A stretch of DNA of 64,000 nt from an uncultured Chloroflexota bacterium (lineage in GTDB: Bacteria > Chloroflexota > UBA11872). Positions 63,009-64,000 of the stretch are shown here, in pieces. Made by a program: the position numbers and the translations under genes. Positions within the stretch are counted from its first letter, which is position 1. The number at the start of each line of letters is the position of its first letter. The notes beneath the pieces were generated by a model. It was not told the DNA's origin and ran no database searches. It was given only the letters and a program-made list of their open reading frames with translations. The stretch spans positions 719,899 through 783,898 of the forward strand of contig OY282448.1 of the NCBI GenBank assembly GCA_958296175.1, in the 5' to 3' direction.

Positions 63009-63083
63009 TGGTTGCGGGGGTCGGATTCGAACCGACGACCTCCGGGTTATGAGCCCGACGAGCTACCACTGCTCCACCCCGCA
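63009..63083 (-). tRNA. tRNA-Met (anticodon CAU) with initiator-like features (GGG/CCC anticodon stem, A11:U24)
   Basis: Reverse complement gives UGCGGGGUGGAGCAGUGGUAGCUCGUCGGGCUCAUAACCCGGAGGUCGUCGGUUCGAAUCCGACCCCCGCAACCA, a full cloverleaf with encoded CCA. Confidence 0.85.
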
Positions 63084-63215
63084 AATCATTCTACCTGCCC
63101 GCGGGCCGCTGCGGCGCCCGACGTGGGAATTTCGGCGCGGGGCGACGGGGCGGCGGGGCGGGCCGCGCGGGGACAGCATCGGCCGCGCGGCGGGCGGGCA
63201 GGGGTCGGGCGTAGG

Positions 63216-63545
63216 GGGCGGGAGCATCGAACCGGGCGGTAAGCCGCATTCTGTCGCGGGCGGCCATCTATCTGGGACCGGCGTTGCCGCCGGCCTCGTG
63301 CGGCCCACCTGGGACTGGGCGAGCAGCCTCGCAGCGTCCCGGCTTGGCCTTGCTTCCGGTAGAGGTTGGCCGTTTCACTCCCGGCGGGGCGCCGGGCATC
63401 GTCACTGTGCCCCTGGTCCGGCCCTTGGCGGCGGGCGGCCGCCTCGGACGGCGGGTGTTACCCGCTACCGTGCTCTGTGAAGTGCGGACTTTCCTCTCGG
63501 GCGGCGGGCCCGAGCGGCCGCCTGCCCGACCCGATGCTCCCGGAG
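63216..63545 (-). ncRNA. rnpB: RNase P RNA (bacterial type A)
   Basis: Minus-strand RNA contains GAGGAAAGUCCGCAC (P4 5' strand), GGUAACACCCGCC, GGAAGCAAGGCCAAG, GACAGAAUGCGGCUUACCG, and a long P1 helix GGGAGCAUCGGGUCGGGC paired with GCCCGGUUCGAUGCUCCC. Confidence 0.85.
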
Positions 63546-63837
63546 CCATCGTCGCACATTGCGCCGGCGCGGCGATGGGCCGGCGGGCCTGGCTTGCACA
63601 CGCGGGACTTGCAGCGCGCGTGGGGATTGCCGCGGGCCGCACTGGAACGGCCTGTGTCCAGCAGCCGCAGGCCTGGGCGGCGGCCCTTCGCAGGGGAAGA
63701 GTGAGTGTGAGGCTGCGAACTCGTCATGACCCGGCAGGGTATGTCCGGCGGACGGCCGCCGCGTGATGCGGCGATGGTCCAGGTGAACACTCACCCTGGG
63801 TGGCCGCGCGGCCGAAGCCTCGCGGCACAATCCCTAG

Positions 63838-64000
63838 AAAGGAGGTGATCCAGCCGCAGCTTCCGCTACGGCTACCTTGTTACAACTTCGCCCCAATCGC
63901 CAGCCCCGCCCTCGACGGCTGCTCCCCTTGCGGGTTGGCGCACCGTCTTCAGGTGTTGCCGACTTTCATGGCGTGATGGGCGGTGTGTACAACGCCCGGG
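63838..64000 (-). rRNA. 16S ribosomal RNA, 3' terminal about 160 nt (gene continues beyond window end)
   Basis: Plus strand carries AAGGAGGTGATCCAGCCGCA and GGCTACCTTGTTACAACTT (the 1541R/1492R primer sites), plus GGGCGGTGTGTACAA. This places the 16S 3' end (GGAUCACCUCCUUUCU) on the minus strand ending near 63838. Confidence 0.9.

Follow-up and report, generated by a model that had tools for sequence, protein, structure and literature searches.

Gene content of the locus

The DNA analyzed here is a 64-kb stretch from an uncultured Chloroflexota bacterium, referred to as a whole as the window; its G+C content is ~74%. Among proteins related to the Ffh encoded in the window, the nearest non-identical ones (81–83% identity) and the remoter ones alike come from MAGs labelled Chloroflexota or Chloroflexi. 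Near the end of the window, Rfam and ARAGORN identify three RNA genes, all on the minus strand and in the order 16S rRNA, rnpB, and initiator-type tRNA-Met, matching the parts list of the preliminary description of the locus. Of the 16S rRNA gene, which extends past the window end, the 3′ end (63838–64000; Rfam RF00177 SSU_rRNA_bacteria, 144.8 bits, model positions 1373–1533) holds the last 161 model positions and terminates in the anti-Shine-Dalgarno sequence GGAUCACCUCCUUU. It is followed by a 16S 3′ trailer (63685–63837), a lineage-specific variable spacer (63557–63684), a short box that is a candidate promoter (63548–63556), rnpB (63221–63540), a second spacer (63084–63220), and the tRNA gene (63009–63083), all read from the minus strand. 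A sub-threshold Rfam search of 62900–64000 returned no further RNA families in these spacers.

Beyond the tRNA lies a gene for a VanZ-like membrane protein (62410–62988, plus strand; reading frame chosen on GC3), whose match to Pfam PF04892 (E = 9e-6, 26.7 bits) falls below the gathering score of 30.1. A protein-coding gene had been described as following the tRNA, and one does, but on the opposite strand; this convergent neighbor bounds the 3′ side of the RNA cluster to within ~20 nt. The canonical rrn arrangement, a single unit of 16S, 23S, and 5S in that order, is found neither in the window nor in 18 relatives, whose 8-kb blocks contain no 23S match in Rfam. No 23S or 5S match at threshold was found by Rfam anywhere in the 64-kb window, and the 16S gene is thus unlinked from both for at least 63.8 kb downstream, far beyond the 800 nt over which the separation of 16S from 23S had originally been claimed. 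This distance places the locus well within the definition of unlinked rRNA genes as those with >1500 bp between 16S and 23S (10.1101/705046).

The rnpB gene is matched on the minus strand by the Rfam model RNaseP_bact_a (RF00010) at 63533–63224, over model positions 1–367 and without truncation, scoring 143.1 bits against a gathering score of 100; the rnpB genes of relatives score 158–206 bits against the same model. An extended P1, in which GGAGCAUCG (63540–63532) pairs with CGAUGCUCC (63229–63221), sets the ends of the gene at ~63540 and ~63221, close to the 63545–63216 first given for a complete type-A rnpB; the covariance search of 62900–64000 that had been suggested as a check likewise supports the gene above gathering score. 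The P1 extension covaries in relatives (GAGCAUCG/CGAUGCUC vs. GAGCGUCG/CGACGCUC), and the long P1 is retained in the minimum free energy fold of the window's rnpB. Its boundaries were read by eye, as RNAduplex over-extended the helix into spurious pairs.

Both strands of P4, GAGGAAAGUCC and ACAGAA..CGGCUUA, are found in the window's rnpB at 63496–63483 and 63254–63240, respectively, and together form a rare compensated variant, GUCCGCA/UGCGGCU. In the Rfam alignment, 43 consensus positions after the GUGAAA motif (model 120–164) are missing, which we take to correspond to P13/P14; peripheral helices are variable within class A, so that missing ones do not exclude membership. By its alignment to the class model the gene belongs with the bacterial class A RNase P RNAs, and catalysis on pre-tRNA is predicted.

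The tRNA gene was called by ARAGORN with a CAT anticodon and an encoded CCA end, and Rfam matches the tRNA model at 63083–63012 with 70 bits. Its initiator-like character, previously proposed, is borne out by the stems as read from the Rfam alignment (UCGGG/CCCGG and GAGC/GCUC), which include A11:U24 and the three G:C pairs G29–G31:C39–C41 of the anticodon stem; the sequence as a whole closely resembles the E. coli initiator tRNA. Position 1:72 is U:A in the window, a weak Watson–Crick pair, and an AxA or GxA mismatch in close relatives.

Conservation and distribution of the gene order

Both strands of the P4 variant were searched for in 185,579 species genomes, which yielded 75 loci; the window's own genome is not among them. 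In 45 of these loci, the same strand carries a 16S 3′ end at a distance of 180–446 nt 5′ of the P4 motif, and in 38 of those 45 a tRNA-Met(CAT) occurs within ~260 nt after rnpB; three more of the 75 loci contain the tRNA and have upstream sequence too short to judge the presence of 16S. The loci lacking 16S comprise ~20 bacterial loci, mostly labelled Anaerolineae/Anaerolineales with a few from other bacterial groups, as well as archaeal loci that share the P4 sequence and have no 16S upstream. Where Rfam was used to check individual loci, 16S followed by rnpB was confirmed in 18 of 18, with tRNA-Met directly after rnpB in 15.

Wherever sequence is available, relatives that share these downstream genes carry 16S at full length (1493–1535 nt). 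Full-length 16S identity between their lineages, of which A is that of the window and the others are designated B–F, is 74–85%, corresponding to order- to class-level depth by commonly used thresholds. The arrangement had been described as unusual; its presence in 45 of 75 P4-variant loci, at 16S identities down to 74%, shows that it is not peculiar to this genome. These data indicate that a 16S-rnpB-tRNA cluster is the norm in a deep, mostly uncultured Chloroflexota clade in which 16S is unlinked from 23S and 5S.

In metagenomes, a scan with the pattern "16S end, 180–240 nt, GAGGAAAGTCC", which makes no demand for the P4 variant, matched 18 contigs, of which 17 carry the variant and one is an apparent chance match. 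Since all 17 true cases carry the variant, the 16S-rnpB linkage appears to be confined to this clade. The 16S genes of relatives show 0–2 mismatches to phylum-level Chloroflexi probes; SAR202 and Dehalococcoides probes did not match these genes, and we therefore claim no class name for the clade.

The 16S leader–trailer helix

The first ~150 nt after 16S are conserved across the clade and end in CACUCACUCUUSCCCUGCUAAGG, with the base of a helix, CCUCACACUCACUCUUCCCCUGCGAAGG, conserved at 63712–63685 in the window. In relatives, this trailer block pairs with a leader motif, CCUUAACA..GAAGAGUG.., that is boxA-like and situated ~120–150 nt before 16S; RNAalifold applied to 16 leader-plus-trailer sequences yields 24 pairs, 18 of them with compensatory changes. 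The pairing was computed in relatives, and the window holds the trailer strand, its leader lying beyond the window end. The start of the spacer after 16S is accordingly the 3′ strand of the classical processing helix that encloses 16S, and since trailer pairs with leader, 16S transcripts must reach at least this strand.

What lies between the helix and rnpB differs among lineages. The distance is ~5 nt in loci L002 and L026 and ~25–30 nt in lineage C, and throughout lineages B, C, and D the variable spacer before rnpB is absent or only ~5–30 nt long. The window has a variable insert of ~145 nt here, and in an alignment of 17 close relatives the stretch 63557–63684 is unconserved and differs widely in length.

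Promoters and terminators in related lineages

Promoters and terminators were sought with a scanner on selected loci and with a re-implementation of the scan over all loci. Consensus promoters in lineages B, C, and D are confined to the region upstream of 16S (e.g., TTGACA-18-TATCAT at −243 in four of four lineage C loci), and the scan found none in either of the two gaps that separate the three genes in these lineages; L002 has TTGTCC-16-TATAAT upstream of 16S. Terminator-like hairpins come directly after the tRNA in L070, L056, and L008, and terminator-like matches within the lineage C spacers fall only inside the processing-helix strand. The gap from rnpB to the tRNA is only ~3–15 nt in lineages B, C, and E, which implies that at least these two genes share one transcript there. 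Additionally, the flanks of rnpB in subgroup B2 form a covarying helix beyond P1 (GAAUAUGGAUG/CAUCCGUAUUC in L019, UUGAGAU/AUCUCAA in L013), so that the 5′ flank of rnpB must be transcribed.

This layout, with a single promoter and no internal signals, holds in lineages B, C, and D, but not in lineage E or in L065, L023, and L060. In L053 and L057, a 5S gene follows 16S and precedes a textbook promoter (TTGACC-17-TAGACT or TACACT) whose predicted start is the first nucleotide of P1 (TTGACC-17-TAGACT-6-P1); a strong terminator comes right after tRNA-Met in both loci, and lineage E terminates there. L065 has TATAAT 7 nt before P1, and L023 and L060 contain terminator-like hairpins between 16S and rnpB, with a tRNA-Glu downstream. 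The internal promoters of lineage E and L065 and the hairpins of L023 and L060 indicate that adjacency does not always mean one transcript. As the clade mixes promoter and terminator layouts, the adjacency of the genes is older, or more stable, than any one transcriptional layout.

Candidate internal signals in the lineage of the window

The box immediately before rnpB in the window reads TGC-GACGAT (63556–63548), with TG at 63556–63555, a single c, and GACGAT at 63553–63548, 7 nt before P1 (G63540). A box at this distance is what one would predict if transcription began at the mature 5′ end of rnpB, as it does in E. coli. The form TG-n-(G/C)AC(C/G)AT is kept 6–8 nt before P1 in the 14 closest lineage A relatives, the rest of the spacer being variable, and equivalent boxes are found in different contexts in L044/L073 (TGT-CAGGAT-6-P1) and L066 (TACCTT-6-P1); alignment shows no such box in L045. 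The lineage A 16S promoter, as identified by alignment, is GGGACA-16-TGC-TACGAT-GGGC, and its TGC-TACGAT is closely resembled by the pre-rnpB box. The pre-rnpB box has no T at −12 and no −35 element; the other promoter-like boxes read in the window start with T (TATGCT before an FMN riboswitch, TAGCAT before a tRNA-Glu). On its conservation and position, we consider 63556–63548 a candidate internal promoter of rnpB.

The same box was also considered as one strand of a helix with the 3′ flank of rnpB. Some sequences would pair (GUGACC/GGUCAU); GCCACC variants are uncompensated, and a structural role was therefore rejected in favor of a signal at the DNA level.

A second conserved element, TA(C/G/A)AAT, stands exactly 4 nt before position 1 of the tRNA throughout lineage A, including L044/L073 and L066, and takes the -10-like form TAGAAT in the window (63093–63088). 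A start at the usual distance from such a box would not fit in front of the tRNA; the element might be a promoter for a tRNA with almost no leader, or else, being AU-rich within a GC-rich precursor, a target for an endonuclease.

A consensus promoter scan of 62000–64000 found no canonical −35/−10 promoter, a negative that is uninformative for the window because the scanner also misses the 16S promoter in the three lineage A loci scanned, where G+C is high. The earlier report that the 296-nt spacer lacks a convincing rnpB promoter is sound as regards a full −35/−10 site, but it overlooked the conserved extended -10-like box. Scanning of 62000–64000 for intrinsic terminators found none on the same strand, and thus none between 16S and the convergent gene; three terminator-like matches in this interval are all on the opposite strand, a count no higher than expected by chance.

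A proposed 16S-rnpB-tRNA transcript

We favor, with fair confidence, the reading that this region is the distal part of a stable-RNA cluster of 16S, rnpB, and initiator tRNA, expressed in the following way. Transcription would start at the rRNA promoter upstream of 16S; the 16S would be looped out by the helix formed between the leader and the first ~150 nt of the spacer (63837–63685) and be excised there, presumably by RNase III, which we assume to be the enzyme. RNA polymerase would read on through rnpB and the tRNA, as no intrinsic terminator stands in the way, and an RNase P cut at the 5′ end of the tRNA would free it. Where the tRNA abuts rnpB, the same cut would trim the 3′ end of the RNase P RNA itself, leaving it near-mature. 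We infer the continuity of this transcript, and the identity of the enzymes that would cut it, against a background of observed gene order, conservation, helix covariation, and promoter and terminator layout in relatives.

Co-transcription is highly probable in lineages B–D, for which a 16S-rnpB-tRNAfMet precursor would be the only simple reading of the sequences. In B and C, where the tRNA follows, it is nearly forced by the position of rnpB ~5–30 nt after the helix and of the tRNA within ~15 nt of rnpB. In the lineage of the window, the two spacers have grown to ~145 and ~137 nt and carry the conserved -10-like boxes, and read-through from 16S is probably supplemented, and possibly replaced, by internal initiation. 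For this genome in particular, we put read-through from 16S at about an even chance and consider a functional internal rnpB promoter somewhat probable; the two are not mutually exclusive. The original suggestion of a 16S transcript that also carries rnpB and the tRNA thus has strong support in sister lineages, where the only consensus promoter found is upstream of 16S and the gaps are short, and gains from the lack of a terminator in the window, but is weakened in this genome by the -10-like boxes before rnpB and the tRNA. More tentatively, and at slightly less than even odds in our estimation, rnpB may be made as a 3′ extension of the 16S transcript across a class-deep clade, its 3′ end self-cut by RNase P at the abutting initiator tRNA, with the lineage of the window being a derived one to which internal promoters were added.

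The principal alternative is that the window contains three separate tandem units, with rnpB transcribed from the box at 63556–63548 and starting at P1, the tRNA transcribed from TAGAAT at 63093–63088, and the adjacency to 16S representing inherited synteny with little read-through. Both boxes are conserved across lineage A amid spacer sequence that varies; the one before rnpB is similar to the box of the 16S promoter in this lineage, down to a GGGC-type discriminator in relatives, and unambiguous promoters stand at the same distance from P1 in L053, L057, and L065. Spacers of ~145 and 137 nt are also long enough for regulatory signals, and lineage E terminates right after the tRNA. However, the rnpB box lacks both the T at −12, with which the other promoter-like sites read in the window (TATGCT, TAGCAT) all begin, and a −35; a start ~7 nt from the tRNA box would fall inside the tRNA, and that AU-rich box might instead serve as an endonuclease target within a GC-rich precursor; and no terminator-like site follows 16S or rnpB. 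Taken together, we regard three separate units as a credible but somewhat improbable account of this genome.

Two further explanations would remove the arrangement itself, and both are exceedingly improbable. Metagenome-derived genomes are commonly misassembled at rRNA genes, and no more than the terminal 163 nt of 16S fall within the window, which could reflect a false join or a truncated 16S remnant beside rnpB; yet the junction recurs in 45 independent genomes, a good number of which are complete or nearly complete and several megabases in size and all of which have full-length 16S wherever sequence is available, and on 17 unrelated metagenome contigs, and the trailer at the junction shows conservation as well as pairing to the 16S leader. 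An ordinary rrn operon with a long ITS that contains rnpB, and with 23S and 5S past a missed boundary, is favored by the general expectation that 23S follows 16S and by nothing more. It is contradicted by the lack of any LSU or 5S match over the 63.8 kb downstream of 16S, by the convergent orientation of the next gene after the tRNA, and by the absence of 23S from the 8-kb blocks of 18 relatives, and unlinked rRNA genes are already documented in Dehalococcoidia-type Chloroflexi (10.1101/705046).

Relation to known systems

The preferred reading, a stable-RNA cluster that begins with 16S, has partial counterparts in several known systems. A canonical rrn operon contains 16S, spacer tRNAs, 23S, 5S, and distal tRNAs, with RNase III helices, and RNase P frees the embedded tRNAs. 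The cluster shares with it the leader–trailer helix around 16S, a boxA-like leader motif (CCUUAACAA), and stable RNAs in tandem on the same strand, as well as, in lineages B–D, a lone promoter ahead of 16S and a terminator that follows the final tRNA. It differs in having the gene for the RNase P ribozyme in place of 23S and 5S, such that the enzyme that releases the tRNA would itself come from the transcript. In effect, the cluster would operate as an rrn operon with the RNase P ribozyme and an initiator tRNA standing in for 23S and 5S.

The rnpB of E. coli (M1 RNA) is monocistronic; its mature 5′ end is the transcription start, and its 3′ end is made by processing. A -10 box 6–8 nt before P1, from which the start would equal the mature rnpB 5′ end, is shared by L053, L057, L065, and possibly by the lineage of the window. 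Unlike E. coli, lineages B, C, and D have no such box; rnpB there begins shortly after the 16S helix, and its 3′ end adjoins a tRNA, so RNase P itself could make that end. Initiator tRNA genes are found in larger operons elsewhere, as in metY-nusA-infB of E. coli and the tRNA clusters distal to Bacillus rrn operons. These have in common with the present cluster an initiator tRNA that is on one transcript with translation components and freed by RNase P, as we infer here; the partner in this case is RNase P RNA, at a gap of ~3–15 nt in several lineages.

Unlinked rRNA genes, documented in Dehalococcoidia-type Chloroflexi and defined by >1500 bp between 16S and 23S (10.1101/705046), are the closest described state: shared are the absence of 23S within 1500 bp, a free-living Chloroflexota lineage, and phylogenetic conservation. 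However, that study mentions neither rnpB nor RNase P and leaves the occupant of the position downstream of 16S undescribed, whereas in the window this position is occupied by rnpB and an initiator tRNA. A full-text literature search, which left most subscription journals outside its reach such that an earlier mention is possible, found no description of 16S-rnpB linkage. The arrangement is visible in public annotations, and prior informal knowledge of it is possible.

Implications

If the three genes form one precursor, regulation would be common to rRNA, the initiator tRNA, and the tRNA-maturing ribozyme, all made in equal amounts, and RNase P RNA would also cut its own 3′ end to size. One consideration against such a precursor is that as much RNase P RNA as 16S would be more than is usually required. 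A shared precursor would raise questions about RNase P RNA turnover and about growth-rate control in organisms in which a single rRNA gene set is apparent. A further question is what filled the downstream position once the 16S and 23S genes had separated.

In practical terms, 16S-ITS-23S amplicon and operon-based typing is unworkable in this clade. Combined with the P4 variant, the junction of 16S and rnpB makes a compact, synapomorphy-like marker of a section of the Chloroflexota with few cultured members, and the natural variants of the clade (fully fused, with an internal promoter, or with an internal terminator) are useful for the study of operon break-up. If the proposed transcript is real, a self-maturing loop would tie the synthesis of the ribosome, the initiator tRNA, and the tRNA-processing ribozyme to one promoter.

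RNase P RNA and the flanks of the RNA cluster

The RNase P RNA gene (rnpB) of the window carries a compensated P4 variant, GUCCGCA/UGCGGCU instead of GUCCGGG/CCCGGCU (63496-63483 and 63254-63240), which is also present in the 75 loci (L001-L075) retrieved by a genome scan for both P4 strands. Carriers of this variant include the 16S-rnpB clade, loci labelled as Anaerolineae, and several with labels of DPANN-type archaea (Woesearchaeota, Nanoarchaeota). At a length of approximately 320 nt, the window rnpB (63533-63224) lacks 43 consensus positions following the GUGAAA motif (model positions 120-164), presumably P13/P14; the distance between the two P4 strands is similarly short in relatives (237-287 nt).

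The surroundings of the cluster vary among these relatives. In L053 and L057, from lineage E, a 5S rRNA gene (6553-6669 in L053) lies between 16S and rnpB; the full order is 16S, 5S, promoter, rnpB, tRNA-Met, terminator, tRNA-Val, tRNA-Tyr, and tRNA-Asp, and no 23S was found near this locus. Within the window's own lineage A, three relatives contain a SAM riboswitch a few hundred nucleotides upstream of 16S and on the opposite strand (L024, 583-688; L050, 3533-3637; L074, 3116-3221), marking a divergent gene that adjoins the rRNA promoter. On the other flank, alignment of lineage A loci shows that most close relatives have a conserved block (…TTCTCTACGGGCGGACGTTTCTTCRCGCACCGG…AAGGAG…ATG) approximately 10-110 nt 3' of tRNA-Met; it resembles the structured 5' UTR of a downstream gene on the same strand. 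The window lacks this block, and its tRNA-Met is followed instead by a convergent VanZ-like gene (62410-62988, plus strand).

Riboflavin genes and adjacent repeats

On the plus strand at 55919-59765, an FMN riboswitch (100.3 bits), preceded by a promoter-like site (TTGGAA-18-TATGCT), is followed by ribD, ribE, ribBA, and then ribH. The interval between ribH and tRNA-Glu contains four degenerate direct repeats (59778-59990, plus strand) of CGGCTCCTCGCGAACGCGGGGACGG, a unit of approximately 25-30 nt with an internal palindrome, regularly spaced at a period of 60-61 nt; no further copies occur elsewhere within the 64-kb window. These repeats resemble either a very small, degenerate CRISPR-like array or an element of the REP type. 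Directly 3' of tRNA-Glu is a C13 homopolymer (60154-60166, plus strand), which could be either a sequencing artefact or a real tract.

Decoding site of the 16S rRNA

In helix 44 of the window 16S, the usual G1405:C1496 decoding-site pair is replaced by A:U at 63987 and 63884 (contexts CCGCCCAUCA and AAGUUGUAAC), which we take to be the equivalents of E. coli positions 1405 and 1496. Among 39 relatives compared, this A:U pair is shared only with L045. Because G1405, the target of aminoglycoside-resistance methyltransferases, is replaced in the window 16S, the compensated A:U substitution may affect sensitivity to aminoglycosides.
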